In this document: in pieces, positions 23,240-35,054 of the stretch | Layout: each line of letters starts with the position of its first letter | Position numbering within the stretch: position 1 is the first letter of the stretch | From: an uncultured delta proteobacterium | Lineage (GTDB): Bacteria > Desulfobacterota > Desulfobacteria > Desulfobacterales > UBA2156 | Length of the DNA: 64,000 nucleotides | Assembly: GCA_963698465.1 (NCBI GenBank) | Contig: CAVOQY010000013.1 | Span: forward strand, 486,687 to 550,686 | Direction of reading: 5' to 3' | Translations under genes and position numbers: made by a program | Notes under the pieces: model-generated | Told to the model about the DNA's origin: nothing | Database searches by the model: none | The model's input: the letters and a program-made list of their open reading frames with translations, nothing else

Positions 23240-23286
23240 TTGACTTCCCTTAAACATGAATATAAATTCATGATTATTATTTCATT
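23240..23286 (+). promoter_or_regulatory. usp operon promoter (TTGACT -35) with tandem operators CATGAA-N6-TTCATG (23255-23272) and CATGAT-N6-TTCATT (23269-23286)
   Basis: Direct reading. The same pair of motifs recurs at 29405-29450. Confidence 0.7.
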
Positions 23287-23329: not shown

Positions 23330-23764
23330 ATGTTTAAGACCATTTTATACCCCACGGATTTCTCTGAGGTCGCCGCCAAGGCCCTGGATTACATCAAACA
23401 GCTCAAGGAAGCAGGTTCCCAGAAAGTCATCGTTTTGCATGTATTCGATGAAAGGGGGCTTCAGGCCGTCAAGGGCTATTTTCCCACCCAGTTTCCAGAG
23501 TTGATCCAAAATCGAATCGAAGACATAACAAAACAGCTCAAAAAGGTGGAAAAAGAGCTGGCCGATAGCGGCTTTTCCGTCGAGGCAAGGATCCAAAAAG
23601 GGATACCCTTCAGGGAGATATTGCAGGCCGAGGAAAAAGAGAGTATTTCCGTCATTGTCATCGGATCCCACGGCAGAAGCAACCTCGAGGAGGTGTTTCT
23701 CGGATCCGTATCCGACAAAGTCGCCAGGAAAAGCAAAAGCCCGGTCCTGATCATCAAGAGGTAA
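23330..23764 (+). CDS. universal stress protein (Usp)
   Basis: ILYPTDFSE, IVIGSHGRS, LGSVSDKV, PVLII. Confidence 0.95.
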   Translation: MFKTILYPTDFSEVAAKALDYIKQLKEAGSQKVIVLHVFDERGLQAVKGYFPTQFPELIQNRIEDITKQLKKVEKELADSGFSVEARIQKGIPFREILQAEEKESISVIVIGSHGRSNLEEVFLGSVSDKVARKSKSPVLIIKR

Positions 23765-23817: not shown

Positions 23818-25125
23818 ATGGGTTCAAATGCCTTCATTGCCATCGCCGTTTTCGCTGTTGTCTATTTACTCATTTCGCTTGAGTGGCTGAACAAGGCGGT
23901 AGCCGCTGTTCTGGGCGTCATCGTCCTGATTGCCCTTCGTGTTACGGATGTCCATTCCGCAGCCGCCCACATCGATTTTGAAACCCTCATGCTCTTGATC
24001 GGGATGATGGGGATCGTCAGCGTTTTGAAAAAATCGGGATTTTTCACCCTCACAACGGTCAGAATCGCGAAACTCACTCGAGGGCAACCCCTTAGAGTCA
24101 TGATCCTGTTCTGTGCCACCACCGCGGTGCTTTCCGCTTTTCTCGACAATGTGACCACGGTCCTCATCATGGTCCCCATTATCATCGAGCTCACCCTGGG
24201 CATGGGTCTTGATCCAAAAATCTACGTCATCGCCGTGGCCATGGCCTCAAACTTGGGCGGCACGGCCACCCTCGTGGGAGACCCGCCCAACATCATCATC
24301 GGTTCAAAGGTCGGTCTGAGCTTCAATCAGTTTTTGGCCTACCTCCCCTTACCGGTCATCGTGAGCACGGTGGGCGTGATGGCCTATTTCTGGGCGACGA
24401 ACCGAAAAAGCTTCAAGTCCATCGATGACAACCTGCCCCAGCTGTTTTCCGTTCAGCTGCTGATCGAAAAGATCGAGTTCGATTTCCTGTCTGTCCGGAT
24501 CGACCGCAGGTTTCTGATAAAAAGCCTGGCGTGCCTGGGAATTGCCATGCTCCTCTTCGTGACACAGACCCTCACCCGGCTGTCCCCCGGGGTGGTGTCC
24601 CTCGGTGTCGCGATGGTGCTTTTCATGATCACCCGGATGGAAATCGAGCAGGTCCTCATGGAGATCGAATGGAGCACCCTTCTCTTTTTCGCCGGACTTT
24701 TTATCCTGGTCGGAACCCTGGAGGAAAACGGCGTCATCGAATGGGTCGCCCGCAACATCTTCCTTCAGGTGGGCAGCAATCCTTATCTCATGACGCTGAT
24801 GGTTTTGTGGGTTTCAGGTATCGCCTCCGGATTCATCGACAACATACCGTTTACCATCACCATGATCCCCATCATCCAAATGATGCTGGCCACGAATCCT
24901 GTCCCTCACCATATTTTATGGTGGGCCCTTTCCCTGGGCGCCTGTTTCGGGGGGAATCTTACCCTGATCGGTGCCTCTGCAAATATCGTATCCGTGGGCA
25001 TGATGAAAAAATACGGGCAGCATATCACCTTTGCGGAATACACGCGAAAAAGCGCCCCAGGGACAGTCCTCTCCCTGCTCTTTGCTTCTGTCGTTCTGGT
25101 CCTCTACTTGTGGATTTTCCTATGA
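23818..25125 (+). CDS. ArsB/NhaD/SLC13 (ion transporter superfamily) permease
   Basis: SAFLDNVTT, SNLGGTATLVGDPPNIII, DNIPFT, GGNLTLIGASAN. Confidence 0.88.
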   Translation: MGSNAFIAIAVFAVVYLLISLEWLNKAVAAVLGVIVLIALRVTDVHSAAAHIDFETLMLLIGMMGIVSVLKKSGFFTLTTVRIAKLTRGQPLRVMILFCATTAVLSAFLDNVTTVLIMVPIIIELTLGMGLDPKIYVIAVAMASNLGGTATLVGDPPNIIIGSKVGLSFNQFLAYLPLPVIVSTVGVMAYFWATNRKSFKSIDDNLPQLFSVQLLIEKIEFDFLSVRIDRRFLIKSLACLGIAMLLFVTQTLTRLSPGVVSLGVAMVLFMITRMEIEQVLMEIEWSTLLFFAGLFILVGTLEENGVIEWVARNIFLQVGSNPYLMTLMVLWVSGIASGFIDNIPFTITMIPIIQMMLATNPVPHHILWWALSLGACFGGNLTLIGASANIVSVGMMKKYGQHITFAEYTRKSAPGTVLSLLFASVVLVLYLWIFL

Positions 25126-25997
25126 ACGAGGTTAAAAACCAAGCCCTGTACCGCCTGATCCGGGAATATTTGTATGCCATGGGCACCTCCCGTACCACCG
25201 TCGTTGCAATCCAATCCTACATCGACGCGATCCGGAGGCTCCGATGTACGCCTGGCGCTTTCAAAGGTAACCTTCTGGAGCTCGGTGAGATTATCAAAAG
25301 GACCGAGCCCCAGGTAACCCCGCTGGTTCTCCTGATTGAACAGTTTAATGCTGAAATTCAACGGCAGCCAAACGGGGATTTGGAATCCGCCAAGGTCAAA
25401 TCGGTCGAAATCCTCTCGAGCTTGTTGAAGCGGTTCGAAGACGACACGGAAAAACTCTCCCGAAACTGCATGAACTGTATCGAATCCGGCGATTTCATCG
25501 TCGCCCATTCTTCCACCGCTTACATACGAAACGCTTTTGCCCGCGCCTTTTCCGAATTGAACCGCAAATTCAAAGTTCTGGTCCTAAAACAGGACTTCCT
25601 GCGCACCAAGGACCTGATCAACATCCTTGAAAGCCATAGAGTCGACCACCTCCTGATTCCCGAATACAATCTGAGCCACTTTCTAAAAGACACAAACAAG
25701 CTTTTCATCGGGGCGGTGTCGGTGACCGCTGATCACAAAGCCGTGGCAGGAATCGGAACCGCCAATGTGGTCAGTCTGTGCCATTCCCATAACGTGCCGG
25801 TGTACCTATTCGTCGAAACGATCAAGTTTTCTCACACGACCCTGCCGGAGCACCACATTTACAAAGAAGAAAAAGAGAAGATCGAATCCGATTATCCCTT
25901 TCGCATCACCACTTTTTCACATGATTTCATTGACTTGGGCATGGTCGATCACCTCATCACCGAAAACGGGGAAATGGCAGAAAAACCGGGTTCATGA
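25122..25997 (+). CDS. IF-2B family (eIF2B alpha/beta/delta, ribose-1,5-bisphosphate isomerase-like) protein
   Basis: ATG overlaps the permease stop (ATGA). Helical N-domain, then a Rossmann-like domain: GDFIVAHSST, FIGAVSV, IGT, ETIKF, DHLITENG. Confidence 0.75.
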   Translation: MNEVKNQALYRLIREYLYAMGTSRTTVVAIQSYIDAIRRLRCTPGAFKGNLLELGEIIKRTEPQVTPLVLLIEQFNAEIQRQPNGDLESAKVKSVEILSSLLKRFEDDTEKLSRNCMNCIESGDFIVAHSSTAYIRNAFARAFSELNRKFKVLVLKQDFLRTKDLINILESHRVDHLLIPEYNLSHFLKDTNKLFIGAVSVTADHKAVAGIGTANVVSLCHSHNVPVYLFVETIKFSHTTLPEHHIYKEEKEKIESDYPFRITTFSHDFIDLGMVDHLITENGEMAEKPGS

Positions 25998-26093
25998 ACC
26001 CGGGAAAGCACCGCGCGGCTGCCTGGAGTCAAGAGGTGTTCAGGGCGGTCTTATCCAAGGTATTGCCGGGAGGATCAGCGGTGATTTTTTCAT

Positions 26094-27447
26094 ATGAAAC
26101 ATACCCTTTTACGACGCCTTTCCCCGGAACGGCTTTTCATCTTGAGCTTCATTGCCCTCATCCTGACGGGAGCCGTTCTGCTGCGGATGCCCGCCGCGGC
26201 ATCAAACCAACCCCTGTCCTTTCTTGACGCCGTATTCACTTCGGCGTCGGCCGTGTGCGTCACCGGGCTGGCGGTGATCGGGGTCGGACAAGACCTTTCA
26301 GCCTATGGTCAGGGGGTGACACTGGCCCTGTTCCAGTTGGGGGGGCTGGGAATCATCACCTACTCCGCAATGTTCTTCGTCATGATCGGCCGGGGACTGG
26401 CTACCCGGGAACGGGACATCCTCCAGTCCGTATTCCTGGGGGAACCGCGCCGCGATATTACCGCCATTCTCAAATTCGTGCTGGTCTCCACCGCCTGTTT
26501 CGAGGCGGCCGGTACCCTGCTTCTCTGGGTGCGCTTCTGCAGGGACTTGTCGCCCGGCCAGGCGCTCTTCAGGGCGGTCTATCACTCCGTTTCGGCTTTC
26601 AATAACTGCGGATACGCGCTGTTTCCGGACAGTCTCATGTCTTTTCAGGGGGACCTCCTGGTCAACGCCACGGTGATGACGCTTATCGTCGCAGGCGGCA
26701 TCGGTTTCATCGTGCACTTTGAACTTGTCATGCGCCTTCGGGGTCGCCAGCGGCATCTTTCTGTGCATACCAAGATCGTCCTGATCGCCACAGCGGCTTT
26801 AATCGTTTCCGGAGCCCTCCTCTTCTTTGCCTTCGAGCACAAGGGAATCCTGAAAGGATTGCCGTTTCAGAGCCAGGTCCTGGCTTCCCTGTTCCAATCC
26901 ATAACCGCACGCACCGCCGGATTCAACACAGTGGAAATCGCACAGTTAGGCAACCCCACCCTCCTGATGATTCTGCTGATGATGTTTATCGGCGCCTCGC
27001 CGGGGTCAACCGCCGGGGGCGAAAACCACCAGTGCGGCCCTGCTCTTCCTGCTGTTGTGGAGCCGCGCCAAGGGCCGGGAAGAGGTAACCGTATTCAACC
27101 GCACCATTCCCCGGGAATTGCTGAACCGAATGGTTTCCATCCTTCTGGCATCTACCCTGTCCATCGTTTTGATCACGTCGGTGGTCCTGGTCGTGGCCGA
27201 CGATATCCCCCTGCCGGGTCAAAGTCGTCATCTGTTCGTTGAATACTTTTTTGAGACGGTTTCGGCTTTCGGCACCGTGGGGCTGTCCATGAACGTGACC
27301 CCGGGTCTCAATGCGCCGCAGAAGGTTTCAATCATGCTGATGATGATTGCCGGCCGGGTGGGGCCTCTGACGCTGGCGTTTTCGCTTGCTCGAACCGCGC
27401 GCCGGAAACAACTCATTTACGCGGAAGAAGGGGTCATCGTGGGTTAA
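26094..27447 (+). CDS. ktrB: KtrB/TrkH potassium uptake permease, frameshift at ~27021
   Basis: SAVCVTGL, SAFNNCG, TARTAGFN, GASPGSTAGG, then KTTS...FETVSAFGTVGLS...GRVGPLT in the next frame. Confidence 0.88.
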
Positions 27448-27459
27448 GGAGGGCTCATC

Positions 27460-28106
27460 ATGAAGCGTATCATCGTCTTCGGACTCGGCATCTTCGGCTT
27501 TGAGCTGGCCGTTGAGCTGTCCGGAAAGGGTATCGAAGTCATCGCAATCGACAAAAACAAGGACGCCGTCCAAAGAATCAAGGACACCTGCGCCAAAGCC
27601 ATCGTGGCCGACGCTACGGAAAAGGGGCTCCTGGAGTCCATCGGCATGGATAAGAACGACATCGCCGTCATTTCCTTTGGCGAGGACCTTTCGGCCAGCA
27701 CCCTTCTCACGCTGCATCTCAAGGAACTGGGCGTCCAGACGGTCATTGTCAAGGTCCCCAACGACGATCACCGGCGCGTCTTGAAAAGCTAGGGGCGAGC
27801 GAAGCCATCATCCCCGAGCGGGAGATGGCCGCAAAAATCGCCCGCAGTATCGTTTCCCCCAATGTGCTGGATTACCTGCCCATCTCCGAGGATTACACCA
27901 TCTGTGAGCTGGCGCCCCCTTCGGCCTTTGTCGGCAAAAGCCTTGCCGACTTGGACTTGCGAAAAAAGCACCAGATTCAGGTTATCGCTGTTCGAGACGT
28001 CCTCTCAGACAAACTGCAACTGGTACCGCGGGCAAGCACGGTGATCAAGGACAGTGATGTGCTGGTGATCATCGGCCGGGAGAAGGATATCAACCGGATC
28101 AAATGA
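27460..28106 (+). CDS. ktrA: KtrA/TrkA RCK regulatory subunit, frameshift at ~27783
   Basis: GLGIFG NAD-binding RCK_N. Adding one G (TTG GAA AAG CTA GGG) restores LEKLGASEAIIPE and joins RCK_C (27825-28106). Confidence 0.88.
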
Positions 28107-28201
28107 CAGCCAAGAAAACGAACGCAACTTCCCTTTTCCTGCAAATCGGCGAAGCCTTTTGGAAGCTTCGCGACATCGGATTCGGGTTTTCCTCGCCTGA
28201 T

Positions 28202-28918
28202 CTATTTTCTCCCCAGCCGCAATCCGATGAGTCCGATTTCAAACAGCAGATAAAGGGGAAGTCCCATCAGAATCATGTTCAGGGCGTCCGGGGTCGGCGT
28301 CAAAATTGCCGCAATGATCGCTGCAGCCAGAACCGCGTAGCGACGGTGGGAAGCCAGAAATTGCGCCTTCACCAGGCCGATTCTACCCAGCAGAGTCATT
28401 GCGATGGGCAACTCAAAAATAATCCCGAAACCGAATAAAAAAGCCAGACAGAAAGAGACGAACTTTTTCACGGATATCAGGGCTTCGAGGCGCTCACTTT
28501 CATAGCCCAGCAAGAACTGGGCACCGTAGGGCAGCGAGACGGTCAGACAGAAGAGCATGCCGGCATAGAAAAACAAGATGGATGCAAACCAGTATCCGAT
28601 CATGCTTTTTCGGGAAAAAGAAGGGAAAAGTGGCGGCAAAGCGGCCAGCACCGCGTAGAGAATATACGGAATGCTGGCAAAGACACCGATTCCCAGCCCC
28701 AGAAGCAAAAACGAAAAGAAGGCCTCTGGAATGCCGAAGGCCACCAACTTGACGCCGGTGATCTGCTGAACGTATTTCAGGATCGGTTCGGCAACACAGT
28801 AGCCACCGATTGAAAAGCCAAAAACGACGATGCCGATTCGAATCAAAGAGGCCCGAAAAGACTCGAGGAAGGCCAGAATTCGCTTGGGCTCCTGAAGGGA
28901 TTTGTCCGAAATGTTCAT
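28202..28918 (-). CDS. tatC: divergent TatC-family membrane protein
   Basis: Six TM segments, FGIIFELP, RRYA, LTPTPD, LYLLFEIG. The N-terminal signature is degenerate. Confidence 0.75.
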   Translation of the reverse strand: MNISDKSLQEPKRILAFLESFRASLIRIGIVVFGFSIGGYCVAEPILKYVQQITGVKLVAFGIPEAFFSFLLLGLGIGVFASIPYILYAVLAALPPLFPSFSRKSMIGYWFASILFFYAGMLFCLTVSLPYGAQFLLGYESERLEALISVKKFVSFCLAFLFGFGIIFELPIAMTLLGRIGLVKAQFLASHRRYAVLAAAIIAAILTPTPDALNMILMGLPLYLLFEIGLIGLRLGRK

Positions 28919-28940
28919 CTTTTGACGCTTCTTTGTCTGT

Positions 28941-29237
28941 TCAAGCCCGCTTCAGTTTGGTTTTTTCACTCGTTAGAACCTTCAACAAGTTGCCCACCAA
29001 TTTATCGCGCTGACTCAAGTGCCGAAGCGGCATAGACAACTCGATGCTGTATCGGATCCTTCTGCCGTCCTTTTGCTTGCGGATATACCCCGCAACCTCC
29101 AGATCCCTGATGATTTTTCGGACCGCGCGTTCGGTGATGCCTACGTTCAAGGCAAGGTCTCGAGCGGTGATATTGGGGTGCGTGGACATAAAACTGAGGA
29201 CCACGGCATGATTGGTAACAAAAGTCCATTCGGCCAT
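28941..29237 (-). CDS. small winged helix-turn-helix transcriptional regulator
   Basis: WTFVTNHA N-terminus, HTH TARDLALNVGITERAVRKIIRDLE, wing KDGRRIRY. Confidence 0.85.
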   Translation of the reverse strand: MAEWTFVTNHAVVLSFMSTHPNITARDLALNVGITERAVRKIIRDLEVAGYIRKQKDGRRIRYSIELSMPLRHLSQRDKLVGNLLKVLTSEKTKLKRA

Positions 29238-29375
29238 CGGACACCTCTCTGATGCCTATTTTGACGACTGGATTAATTTCCCCTTCACTTTTTCACTTCA
29301 AAGGCCACTATAGGTCTTCCTGACAGCACTTTTCAAGCAAAAGAGCCCCCTTCCATTCAAGGGATTAAAAACATC

Positions 29376-29450
29376 TTGACAGGGCATCCTAATTGGAATT
29401 ATTACATGAAATATTATTCATGTAAATAATTACATGATTATCTTTTCATT
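29376..29450 (+). promoter_or_regulatory. dctM promoter (TTGACA) with operators TTACATGAA-N6-TTCATGTAA (29402-29425) and CATGAT-N6-TTCATT (29433-29450)
   Basis: Perfect 9-bp-arm palindrome in the wHTH/dctM divergent region; same motif family as at 23255. Confidence 0.72.
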
Positions 29451-29544
29451 TTTTATAAAATTTCTGTTTTTAGGAGCCTATAACCTGCGGAAGCTCAAGC
29501 CGTCTTGATACAAAGGCGGGGGATCGCAGGGGTTCTGAAGGAGG

Positions 29545-30879
29545 ATGAGCATCTTGGATCTGAGCGTGATCATCATCCTGTTGGTGCTGCTCGGAGCGAT
29601 GGCGGCCTATATCCCCGTTTACATCTGTCTTTTTTTCACGGGCGCAATTGGCTTTGTCCTCTTCGCTCCGGAAACTCAAACCCTGATGCTCGTGGAGAGT
29701 TTTTTCAAGAGCATGGACAACTTCGCGCTGGTGGTGGTGCTGTTCTTCATTCTTTGCGGCAATATCATGACCGCCGGCAGCATCGTGGACAAGCTGATCA
29801 AAATGGTCAACACGCTGGTCAGCTGGCTTCCCGGCGGGCTGGGAATGGCCGGCTGCCTGGGCTGCGGCCTGTTCGGGGCGATTTCCGGTTCTACGGTGGC
29901 CACCGTGGTCGCCCTGGGCGGTTTTATGATCCCCGCACTGATTAAAAACGGCTATCCCATGAAATACACCCTCGGCCTGATGACCACGTCCCCGAATCTG
30001 GGAATCATCATCCCGCCGAGCATCAGCATGATTCTTTATTGCATGATCACCAATGTCTCGCTTCAGGGGCTTTTTCTGACGGGTTTCGTCCCTGGGATTC
30101 TAGTCATGCTGCTGGTATGCCTCTATTCGTATTTCATGTTCCGGACCGACGAGGGCATTGTACGCCTTCCGGTACCGAACTTAAAGGAATTCCTGGCTGT
30201 CTTCAAAGAGGGCTTCTGGTCGCTGATGCTGCCTGTGATCATTTTTGCAGGAACGTTCTCAGGGATGTTCACGGCCGACGAAGCGGCCGTGGTGGCCTGC
30301 ATCTACGCTTTCATCGTGGAGCTGTTCATCCATCGAACCATGAAAATCAAGGATGTGAAGAAAGTCATCGTCAGTTCGGCTGTCACCTCGGCCACGCTTC
30401 TGATCATCGTGGCAGGCGCCACCTGCTTCGGCCGCTACCTGACCTTCGAGAATGTGCCCTCAAGGATCGCCGAGTCCGTCATCGAAAACATCCATTCCCC
30501 CTTGATGTTTCTCCTGGCGATCAACTGCTTCCTGCTGGTGGTCGGCATGTTCATGGACGTGATTTCGGCAACGCTGATCATCGGGCCGGTGTTGATCCCC
30601 TTGCTTCCCACCTTCAATGTGGACTTCATGCACTTCGGGTTGCTGATGACGGTGAACCTCGCCATCGGCTACTGCACGCCGCCGGTGGGGGTCAGCATGT
30701 ATATCACGGGCGCGATGGCCAACAAGGACATCCTCTACGTCACCCGGGCCGTGCTCCCTTTCTTGATCATCCAGATCGCCGTGTTGCTTTTCATGACCTA
30801 TCTGCCGGATGTGGTGCTGTGGCTGCCCAAGCTGATGGGGTTTTGGGAGGCCACTGAGGGCGGCACACCGGCGCTTTAG
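29545..30879 (+). CDS. dctM: TRAP transporter large permease DctM (no adjacent dctP/dctQ)
   Basis: FGAISGSTVATVVA, GIIIPPSI, PGIL, ADEAAVVA, TPPVG. Confidence 0.9.
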   Translation: MSILDLSVIIILLVLLGAMAAYIPVYICLFFTGAIGFVLFAPETQTLMLVESFFKSMDNFALVVVLFFILCGNIMTAGSIVDKLIKMVNTLVSWLPGGLGMAGCLGCGLFGAISGSTVATVVALGGFMIPALIKNGYPMKYTLGLMTTSPNLGIIIPPSISMILYCMITNVSLQGLFLTGFVPGILVMLLVCLYSYFMFRTDEGIVRLPVPNLKEFLAVFKEGFWSLMLPVIIFAGTFSGMFTADEAAVVACIYAFIVELFIHRTMKIKDVKKVIVSSAVTSATLLIIVAGATCFGRYLTFENVPSRIAESVIENIHSPLMFLLAINCFLLVVGMFMDVISATLIIGPVLIPLLPTFNVDFMHFGLLMTVNLAIGYCTPPVGVSMYITGAMANKDILYVTRAVLPFLIIQIAVLLFMTYLPDVVLWLPKLMGFWEATEGGTPAL

Positions 30880-32962: not shown

Positions 32963-33775
32963 ATGCAGACTGAAACGACCCCTAAATGGCGCCATCGACT
33001 TCATGACATCATCTTCGAGGCCGATACCCCTGCGGGGAAGGCCTTCGACGTGGCCCTGATCCTTTGTATCATCTTCAGCGTGGCCGTGGTGATGCTGGAC
33101 AGCATTTCGGCCGTCAGGTTCCGGTATGGAAGCGTGCTGCTCGCCCTGGAATGGCTGTTTACGATCCTTTTCAGCATCGAATACGTTTTAAGGCTCCTGA
33201 CCGTTTACAGGCCCCTCAGTTACGCGGTCAGCTTTTTCGGCGTCATCGACCTCCTGGCGGTGCTCCCCACCTATCTCAGCCTTTTTTTCCCGGGAAGCCA
33301 GGTCCTGATCGTCATTCGTCTGCTCCGGGTGCTGCGGATATTCCGGGTATTGAAGCTCGCCCATTACCTGGGGGAATCCATGCAGCTGATGCGGGCCCTG
33401 AAAGCCAGCCGGCGGAAGATTACCGTATTTCTATTTTTCCTCCTGACCATCGTCTCCATCATGGGGTCGGTCATGTACCTCGTGGAAGGTCCGGAGAGGG
33501 GGTACACCAGCATTCCGATAAGTATTTACTGGGCCATCGTGACCCTCACCACCGTGGGGTACGGGGACATCTCTCCCCAGACGCCCCTGGGTCAGGCTGT
33601 TGCCTCAGTCATCATGATCCTGGGGTATGCCATCATTGCGGTTCCCACCGGCATCGTCACCACGGAGATGACCAAGATTTCCCGAAGCGTCGACAACCGT
33701 GCTTGTCCCGCCTGCAGCGCCGAGGGGCACGACAACAGCGCCAAGCACTGCAAGTTCTGCGGGGCCGAGCTCTGA
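32963..33775 (+). CDS. voltage-gated potassium channel (6TM, KvAP-like) with C-terminal Cys4 motif
   Basis: S4 IRLLRVLRIFRVLK, filter TTVGYGD, CPAC...CKFC. Confidence 0.92.
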   Translation: MQTETTPKWRHRLHDIIFEADTPAGKAFDVALILCIIFSVAVVMLDSISAVRFRYGSVLLALEWLFTILFSIEYVLRLLTVYRPLSYAVSFFGVIDLLAVLPTYLSLFFPGSQVLIVIRLLRVLRIFRVLKLAHYLGESMQLMRALKASRRKITVFLFFLLTIVSIMGSVMYLVEGPERGYTSIPISIYWAIVTLTTVGYGDISPQTPLGQAVASVIMILGYAIIAVPTGIVTTEMTKISRSVDNRACPACSAEGHDNSAKHCKFCGAEL

Positions 33776-33803
33776 AACGCTTTGCGAGAAGCGGAGAAAC
33801 TTC

Positions 33804-35054
33804 ATGACTTTGGAAAAAGCCCTTGTTCTGACGGTTTTCGTCGCCTGTTACGGACTGGCGCTCAGCCGGAAGATCAAAATCGCCTATGCCTCCCTGGGAG
33901 GGGCCGCCATCCTGCTGCTCACCGGGGTGCTGCACCCGTCCGACGCCCTTTTCAAGGCCGTCAAGTGGGATGTGCTGGGCATCTACTGGGGCTTCATGAT
34001 GGTCTCCTTCCTCTTCATGAAAAGCCGCATGCCCGAGCTCATCGCCAACCGGATCCTGATGCGGGTGAAGCAGGAGAGATACGCTGTCTTCGCCCTTTGT
34101 GCCCTGACCGCTTTTTTATCGGCCTTCATGGAGAACGTTGGGGTGGTGCTCATGATGGCCCCCGTGGCCATCGCTGTCAGCCGGCGAATGGGGTCCGATC
34201 TTTTTCACTACATGATAGCCATTGCCATCAGTTCCAACGTGGTCACCACCCTGACCATGGTGGCCGATCCGCCTTCCATCATCCTGGCCATGGAAACCGG
34301 CATGAAGCCGCTCGATTTCTATTTCTTTCAGAGCCGCCCCGGACTGGGAACCCTCACCTTTATCGGGGTGCTGACGGCACTGGCCGTTCTGCTGTTCCAG
34401 TTCCGGCGCAGGATTAAAAAGGTCGAGGTCCAACACGAGCCCATTCCCGTAACCCATGGGGCGTCGGTGCTCTTTGTGCTGGGCGTCGCCGCCCTGGTCA
34501 TCGGGCCTGAATACGGCCTGCGCCCGGGGCTGGTGGGGCTCGGCGTCGGGGTGGTTTCGCTCTTCATGGGACGGGCCGATCTCAGGGAAATGGTGATGGA
34601 TTTTGACTGGAATTCCCTGCTCTTCATCCTGGGCGTCTTCGTGGTGATCTATGCCCTCAACGACTCGGGCCTGCTGAAGGATTTCGCCGACCTCGTGGTG
34701 GCCGCCGGCATCGACAGACCCGCTTTCCTGCTGGCCTTTCTAACCTGGATCTCGGTAGGGCTTTCTTCCTTCATGGACAACGTCCCTTACACCATCCTGA
34801 TGATCCCCGTGTGCCAGAACCTGGCGGCTTCCCTCGGCATGGACGCCTGGCCCTTGCTGTACGGCATGCTCATCGGTACGGGTATCGGGGGGAATGTGAC
34901 GCCCGTCGGCGCCACCGCCAACGTCTTCGCCTGCGGGATCCTCGAAAAGCACGGGCACAAGGTCCGGCTCGGACCCTACCTGAAGCTCAGCGTCCCCTTT
35001 TCGGTTGCGGCCGTGGCAGTTGCTCATCTTCTCCTTCAGCTTTTCTGGATGTGA
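33804..35054 (+). CDS. second ArsB/NhaD/SLC13-type permease
   Basis: SAFMENV, ADPPSIIL, DNVPYT, GGNVTPVGATAN. Confidence 0.85.
   Translation: MTLEKALVLTVFVACYGLALSRKIKIAYASLGGAAILLLTGVLHPSDALFKAVKWDVLGIYWGFMMVSFLFMKSRMPELIANRILMRVKQERYAVFALCALTAFLSAFMENVGVVLMMAPVAIAVSRRMGSDLFHYMIAIAISSNVVTTLTMVADPPSIILAMETGMKPLDFYFFQSRPGLGTLTFIGVLTALAVLLFQFRRRIKKVEVQHEPIPVTHGASVLFVLGVAALVIGPEYGLRPGLVGLGVGVVSLFMGRADLREMVMDFDWNSLLFILGVFVVIYALNDSGLLKDFADLVVAAGIDRPAFLLAFLTWISVGLSSFMDNVPYTILMIPVCQNLAASLGMDAWPLLYGMLIGTGIGGNVTPVGATANVFACGILEKHGHKVRLGPYLKLSVPFSVAAVAVAHLLLQLFWM

Follow-up and report, generated by a model that had tools for sequence, protein, structure and literature searches.

What does a protein of the IF-2B family do when its gene overlaps the end of a permease gene? 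The question is raised by a window of 64,000 nucleotides (the whole stretch of DNA that was analysed) from contig CAVOQY010000013.1 of an uncultured delta proteobacterium. There, the gene for a 435-amino-acid permease of the ion transporter (IT) superfamily, of CitMHS/ArsB/NhaD type according to Pfam and a tree (23818..25125, + strand), runs into the gene for P0001, a protein of 291 amino acids with the IF-2B fold and without the isomerase catalytic pair according to Pfam, alignments and AlphaFold2 (25122..25997, + strand). The answer that we favour, with confidence slightly better than even, is that P0001 is a non-isomerase cytoplasmic partner of the permease, probably a regulatory one. The family and fold of P0001, the loss of the catalytic residues, the obligate pairing and overlap of the two genes, the single clade formed by the permeases and the CBS-pair gene that occupies the same slot in sister clades are established.

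The IF-2B-like protein and its altered pocket

P0001 clearly belongs to the IF-2B family by sequence and predicted fold. The Pfam IF-2B model (PF01008) matched residues 23-253 with 84.9 bits (E 7e-24, cut-off 22.4), and an AlphaFold2 model built from a 25-sequence alignment (predicted local distance difference test, pLDDT, 84.4; predicted template modelling score, pTM, 0.81) displays the two-domain IF-2B fold, with an N-terminal helical bundle and a C-terminal Rossmann-like domain. Foldseek against the PDB matched this model to the archaeal 'aIF2B' protein PH0440 (1vb5) with template modelling (TM) scores of 0.76-0.81, to ribose-1,5-bisphosphate (R15P) isomerase 5yfj with 0.77, and to eIF2B delta and alpha with 0.7-0.79, so the IF-2B architecture claimed by the initial annotation of this DNA was borne out. 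The NCBIfam equivalog models for defined members of the family scored far under their cut-offs on P0001: R15P isomerase (R15Pi; TIGR00511) 48.9 bits against 314.1, archaeal aIF-2B 48.0 against 339, and MtnA 39.6 against 185.85 (TIGR00524) and 16.3 against 271 (NF004326). PADLOC gave no defence-system match for P0001 or the permease, and an anti-phage defence reading was therefore dropped.

Pocket residues were mapped by phmmer against the Pyrococcus horikoshii R15P isomerase PH0208 and by a full-length family-profile alignment (E 9e-32), with the ligand and catalytic residues of PH0208 taken from Gogoi & Kanaujia 2018 (PMC5789824). Catalytic Cys135 is replaced by S130 of 'AHSS', Asp204, which is both catalytic and sugar-binding, by V199 of 'GAV', the sugar-binding Asn214 and 1-phosphate-binding Lys215 by A209 and G210 of 'AGIGT', and the 1-phosphate binders Arg22, Arg65 and Gln166 by M20, E62 and T162, respectively. 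Backbone Gly23 and its loop (G21) and the 5-phosphate residue Lys240 (K235) are kept, as is the 5-phosphate residue Ser137 by conservative substitution (T132). Of the pocket, the half that holds the 1-phosphate and the sugar is lost entirely, while the 5-phosphate (anion) half is retained (K235, T/S132). The initial annotation had aligned three of these motifs by eye, and HMMER with both the single sequence and the profile confirmed S130, V199 and A209-G210. It had also called the protein non-catalytic with respect to MtnA/R15Pi chemistry, and this stands, the catalytic pair not being intact in the alignment to PH0208. Because the Cys/Asp pair is absent, the conclusion that P0001 cannot be an isomerase of MtnA or R15Pi type is supported. 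PH0440, which P0001 matches best in the PDB both by single sequence (E 2.7e-11, about 21% identity) and by fold (TM 0.81), likewise carries Ser in place of the catalytic Cys (ITHSFSS), but it retains the GAD aspartate and the NK motif, neither of which is found in P0001. The gene contexts differ as well, since P0001 lies beside a permease and R15P isomerase in a context of nucleotide salvage.

Previous studies of eIF2B-alpha found that Glu198 (the acid of 'GAE') and Asn208 coordinate the sugar, that their mutation abolishes or strongly weakens the binding of sugar phosphate or AMP/GMP, and that eIF2B beta and delta, which are without both residues, have no clear ligand binding (PMC8187479, PMC4787765). 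In our alignment the equivalents in P0001 are V199 and A209, and at the acid and Asn positions P0001 thus resembles eIF2B beta/delta rather than alpha, while the phosphate-coordinating Lys234 of eIF2B-alpha is matched by K235. The earlier proposal of a phosphosugar or nucleotide sensor is weakened by the replacement of the required acid and Asn, the 5-phosphate residues, K235 and T/S132, being all that survives.

These substitutions are common to a whole family, and we therefore do not regard the loss of catalytic residues in P0001 as a chance event. A word-indexed search returned 229 relatives of about 290 amino acids with 40-63% identity, from Desulfosarcina, Desulfatitalea, other Desulfobacterales and Candidatus Scalindua, and an exhaustive search of representatives returned 404 proteins at E<=1e-3 and 34 at E<=1e-30. 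Among 96 aligned full-length representatives, 55 (at least 55 clusters at 50% identity) form a large clade whose signature is absent from the canonical proteins of the same alignment: Q157-[D/E]158...T162 where canonical proteins have '[S/T]-R-P...G', E181 and S185 inside 'PEYxLSH', a hydrophobic residue at 199, K235, and S266-H267-D268 (the 'FSHD' motif) where canonical proteins have 'x-F-D'. P0001 itself carries Q157, D158, T162, E181, S185, K235 and S266-H267-D268. The clade occurs in Desulfobacterales, anammox Scalindua/Brocadiaceae and further lineages.

Cys at position 130 and Asp/Glu at 199 are both absent from all 55. The residue at 130 drifts (S in 34, D in 11, T in 5, A in 2, the rest including N, M and E), and being free to vary it is under no catalytic constraint. 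K235 is retained in 52 of the 55, Ser/Thr132 in 50, and E181 and H129 in 43 each. K235 is also invariant in the close family of P0001, and across the broad family conservation is highest in columns (P63, Q157, T162, G197, G212, K235) that correspond to canonical pocket loops. The ancestral catalytic positions are thus unconstrained, and a new polar set, much of it in the canonical pocket loops, is strongly conserved. Because the pocket keeps the anion site and this new polar set, a ligand for P0001 is likely; because the sugar-coordinating residues are lost, it is probably not a classical sugar phosphate.

Obligate pairing with one permease clade

When examining the junction of the two genes, we observed that the permease stop codon TGA (25123-25125) and the ATG of the IF-2B-like gene at 25122 form the ATGA overlap (25122..25125, + strand) that had been reported from the raw sequence and the open reading frame (ORF) list. 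A longer, GTG-initiated frame (24531..25997) is available to the IF-2B-like ORF; the Met encoded at 25122 is an invariant column and the first residue in 24/24 aligned homologues. Such an overlap implies translational coupling of the two genes, and both proteins would therefore be made together.

The permease matched Pfam CitMHS (E 3e-82) and, more weakly, ArsB, Na_sulph_symp and NhaB, its PDB relatives are VcINDY and ArsB, and the NCBIfam MamN, DASS and ArsB models all scored far under their cut-offs. Linkage was surveyed by tblastn in 80 loci (one genome per species) and 10 metagenome loci, 90 in total. The permease lies directly 5' of the IF-2B-like gene in 86/86 loci with upstream DNA, the remaining 4 starting at a contig end. 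Gene contexts of members with 21-59% identity to P0001 gave the same picture: an ArsB/CitMHS permease of 431-459 amino acids stands upstream in 11/11, including members at 21-33%, and ends 0-4 nt before the IF-2B-like start or overlaps it, and the flanks beyond the pair are unrelated among the 11. The overlap is of 4 nt (ATGA, once GTGA) in 65 of the 77 measurable loci, with other gaps of 0-120 nt. Linkage to this permease is thus recurrent, as the initial annotation would have it.

The pairing also held when the permease was taken as the starting point. In five named genomes, permeases at >=60% identity coincided with an IF-2B-like locus in 6/6 cases. The genome samples were subsamples, and among 121 genomes sampled evenly from the order to which Desulfosarcina variabilis belongs (Desulfobacterales), 12 held between them 12 permeases of the clade and as many IF-2B-like genes; adjacent pairs were present in 10 of these genomes, one with a tandem duplicate of the module, and the two unpaired copies were cut at contig ends. 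Across loci the permease is more conserved than its partner (59-78% vs 32-62% identity). Clustering of flanking ORFs at 84 loci revealed no third conserved gene, with nothing above 21/84, a level reached by lineage-specific signalling genes (histidine kinase, FHA, PP2C, kinase-like protein). Therefore, the permease and the IF-2B-like gene constitute an autonomous two-gene cassette whose pairing is essentially obligate.

Several variants of the cassette were observed. In a paralogous Desulfosarcinaceae clade at about 38-40% identity (L040, L051, L065, L081 and related loci) it is often flanked by genes for a PAS histidine kinase, an 856-amino-acid kinase-like protein, FHA and PP2C, which is probably lineage synteny. 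Several Desulfosarcina/Desulfatitalea genomes hold two or three dispersed copies (L058/L059; L076/L082), which fall into two paralogous clades, one about 57-63% and the other about 35-46% identical to P0001, and one Desulfobacterales genome has a tandem duplicate (G418:C1:91167-96019). One apparent permease/IF-2B fusion, P0241, was rejected as a fragment in which the 3' end of the permease is frameshifted into the frame of the partner.

In a quick maximum-likelihood tree, with the Shimodaira-Hasegawa-like approximate likelihood ratio test (SH-aLRT) as the only support measure, 74 IF-2B-linked permeases grouped in a single clade (SH-aLRT 99), the permease of the window and those of the distant L008 and L009 among them. 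Compared with 14 CBS-linked permeases, this clade has an insertion of 7-9 residues in the central loop (residues 196-236; 24403..24525, + strand) and the strongly conserved motif R..F..I...L.KLFSVQLL..KI....L....D..F..K. The loop contains 8 Lys/Arg and, being rich in these residues, is probably cytoplasmic by the positive-inside rule. We infer that the IF-2B-like partner may dock on this loop.

Partners of sister permeases and competing explanations

Permease homologues that are not linked to an IF-2B-like gene have other partners. Among 301 genomes sampled evenly from the phylum of the window, the IF-2B-like family was found only in the window's own genome, and permease homologues at 36-42% identity were found in 65. 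Short sister permeases of this phylum (426-456 amino acids) are adjoined by an ORF of 146-164 amino acids in 14/14 cases, at 13 loci (L100, L105-L116), and 11 of the 14 ORFs are CBS pairs by Pfam, those of L113, L115 and L116 being so judged from sequence only. Longer homologues (572-591 amino acids) have an N-terminal periplasmic extension instead. Both the CBS-linked and the N-extended permeases fall outside the IF-2B-linked clade, so that partner types segregate by permease clade. The module of permease and stand-alone CBS pair, which is sometimes present as a tandem duplicate (L106), is widespread and appears to be uncharacterised.

To regulate transporters by binding a ligand, without catalysis, is a classical role of CBS pairs. 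Because a CBS-pair gene occupies the same slot in the sister clades, we read the IF-2B-like protein, most economically, as displacing a CBS-type subunit. Like P0001, the CBS-pair proteins are small, soluble and encoded beside a homologous permease, whereas their fold is unrelated and their genes lie either upstream or downstream, the IF-2B-like partner being always downstream. This equivalence of slots lends indirect support to a regulatory role, with binding and gating as predictions, and by analogy P0001 may be likened to the broader known class of transporter regulatory modules that comprises CBS, RCK/TrkA and Usp. As in the regulatory subunits of eIF2B, an IF-2B fold without isomerase chemistry would serve in P0001 as a non-catalytic subunit. 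The two differ in that P0001 is bacterial, bears its own signature and is predicted to have a membrane permease as partner, where eIF2B subunits have eIF2B gamma/epsilon or eIF2.

We therefore propose that the soluble two-domain partner would bind the permease from the cytoplasmic side, with the central loop as a possible docking site. A small ligand, bound in the ancestral cleft between its two domains, would cause it to modulate transport, and the partner would so fill the role that a CBS-pair protein plays at sister permeases. In this cleft the anion sub-site of K235 and T/S132 would be kept, and the residues for the 1-phosphate, the sugar and catalysis would have given way to Q157, D/E158, T162, E181, S185 and S266-H267-D268. 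Dimers are formed by IT-superfamily transporters, VcINDY and ArsB among them, and also by IF-2B proteins, through their C-terminal domains, which makes a 2:2 complex of permease and partner plausible, as we infer, and translational coupling fits stoichiometric assembly. Further, we suggest, though with rather less than even confidence, that bacteria, independently of the eIF2B of eukaryotes, recruited the IF-2B fold to a secondary transporter as a regulatory subunit that senses a metabolite and is interchangeable with CBS pairs.

Several points weigh against a regulatory partner. The complex, the binding of a ligand and the effect on transport, like the direction of regulation and the substrate, are deduced rather than observed; the clustering of the conserved residues in three dimensions is likewise read from the alignment; and a ligand is not guaranteed, as the residues by which eIF2B-alpha binds sugar phosphate or AMP are absent. 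No natural fusion of permease and IF-2B-like protein was found, the other long matches being eukaryotic delta-like or archaeal. Moreover, a new catalytic site might just as well be built from the conserved His267, Glu181, Ser185 and Lys235, and operons of a transporter and an enzyme are common in bacteria. P0001 might then be a re-tooled enzyme, acting on the imported compound or making the exported one, in which these four residues take the place of the Cys/Asp pair. Such an enzyme would account for the family-wide polar set in or near the ancestral pocket loops, for an anion-binding Lys235 in almost all of the representatives and for the two-gene format; yet the catalytic pair, the Asn-Lys and three of the four 1-phosphate-binding side chains are gone, the surroundings contain no further conserved metabolic gene and the flanks change with every lineage, and it is a non-enzymatic CBS pair that sits in the same slot at sister permeases. 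We hold this to be unlikely, though it deserves serious consideration. More doubtful is a ligand-free structural or assembly subunit that stabilises or orients the permease dimer in the way that eIF2B beta/delta act as scaffolds. The missing acid and Asn, which beta/delta also lack, and a tight translational coupling that suggests stoichiometric assembly both agree with it; but the pocket loops, with Lys235 and Ser/Thr132, are the best-conserved part of the protein over 21-100% identity, which is hard to square with an empty pocket.

The initial annotation had further suggested gating together with the universal stress protein (Usp) and the Ktr system. The usp gene (23330..23764, + strand; Pfam Usp E 3e-31) lies 53 nt 5' of the permease gene, and a ktrB/trkH-like gene (26094..27447, + strand; Pfam TrkH) and a ktrA-like gene (27460..28106, + strand; Pfam TrkA_N, TrkA_C) follow. 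From usp to ktrA all five genes lie on one strand with short gaps, a promoter-like site is present at 23240-23280, and no canonical terminator was found on the + strand between the IF-2B-like gene and ktrB, with no T-run after the palindrome at 25986..26003. Co-transcription of usp through ktrA is therefore plausible in this genome, and another genome of the phylum has a related, N-extended permease beside Trk genes and a tandem Usp (L102). By tblastn, however, Ktr/Trk homologues were found at 0/90 related loci and Usp at 2/90, both weak, which makes this context specific to the present genome, and both ktr genes are frameshifted by 1 nt as assembled: ktrB at GGGGG near 27016 and ktrA at AAAA near 27786, where one added A restores the '...LKKLGASEAIIPEREMA...' frame. 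These frameshifts could be assembly errors or true pseudogenes. That P0001 and Usp gate the adjacent Ktr potassium system is accordingly very improbable. Finally, the source annotations name relatives of P0001 'translation initiation factor eIF-2B subunit alpha', 'hypothetical protein' or 'ribose 1,5-bisphosphate isomerase'. None of the evidence supports these labels, and the family is mis-annotated: the equivalog scores are far under their cut-offs and the catalytic pair is absent, and to our knowledge bacteria are without eIF2. We give a translation factor or R15P isomerase practically no credence.

Genomic surroundings and meaning of the cassette

Further features were noted around the cassette. 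A perfect 18-nt palindrome, CCGGGTTCATGAACCCGG, which contains TTCATGAA, spans the stop codon of the IF-2B-like gene (25986..26003, no strand assigned). The palindrome CATGAA-N6-TTCATG occurs exactly twice in the 64 kb (0.23 expected by chance): the copy at 23255-23272 overlaps the promoter-like site 5' of usp, and the copy at 29405-29422 lies in the divergent intergenic region between a winged helix-turn-helix (wHTH) gene and a DctM gene. Two such copies would be consistent with control by one shared regulator, possibly the wHTH protein encoded at 28941-29237. Besides its canonical TatC, on another contig, the genome encodes a second, divergent TatC paralogue at 28202-28918 (- strand; 153 bits vs 246 for the canonical protein), and a TatC paralogue lies within 5 kb of the cassette in 4/90 loci (L007, L012, L017, L020). 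At 32963..33775, the gene for a 270-amino-acid Ion_trans channel of voltage-gated type runs into the beginning of the gene for a second CitMHS/ArsB-type permease (33699..35054); this permease is 29% identical to the first, and in L011 (Desulfobacteraceae SURF_4) an orthologue with 79% identity to it is encoded no more than 5 kb from the cassette. The presence of Usp, KtrB/KtrA, the channel and the second permease hints at inorganic-ion homeostasis or an inorganic-ion substrate, in a context that is not conserved elsewhere.

The guanine-plus-cytosine (GC) content dips at 24001-26000 (0.52) and 28001-30000 (0.51), with values of 0.55-0.61 elsewhere, and the closest relatives of the cassette (63% and 78% identity) are found in Desulfobacterales. 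Together with its occurrence in 1 of the 301 genomes of the phylum, this suggests that the cassette was acquired horizontally.

Neither the IF-2B fold nor the idea of a soluble protein that partners a transporter is new; the IF-2B fold in that role and the signature clade appear to be undescribed. In the full-text literature, whose coverage leaves out most subscription journals, we found no description of an IF-2B-like gene paired with such a permease, and no experimental function for either the IF-2B-like or the CBS-pair pairing in this permease family. If our reading is correct, a mis-annotated family would gain a defined signature and one invariant partner, which can be tested, and bacteria would possess a counterpart to the regulatory core of eIF2B that arose from a sugar-phosphate isomerase. 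Should the partner indeed sense a metabolite, it would represent a new class of transporter regulator and the second natural case of an isomerase turned allosteric sensor. The orphan ArsB/NhaD/CitMHS-type clade appears to need a soluble partner, and the cassette would offer a route into it, since the ligand of the partner could reveal what the transporter responds to. The swap of CBS-pair and IF-2B-like proteins across sister clades would then be a natural experiment on how transporters acquire regulatory subunits.

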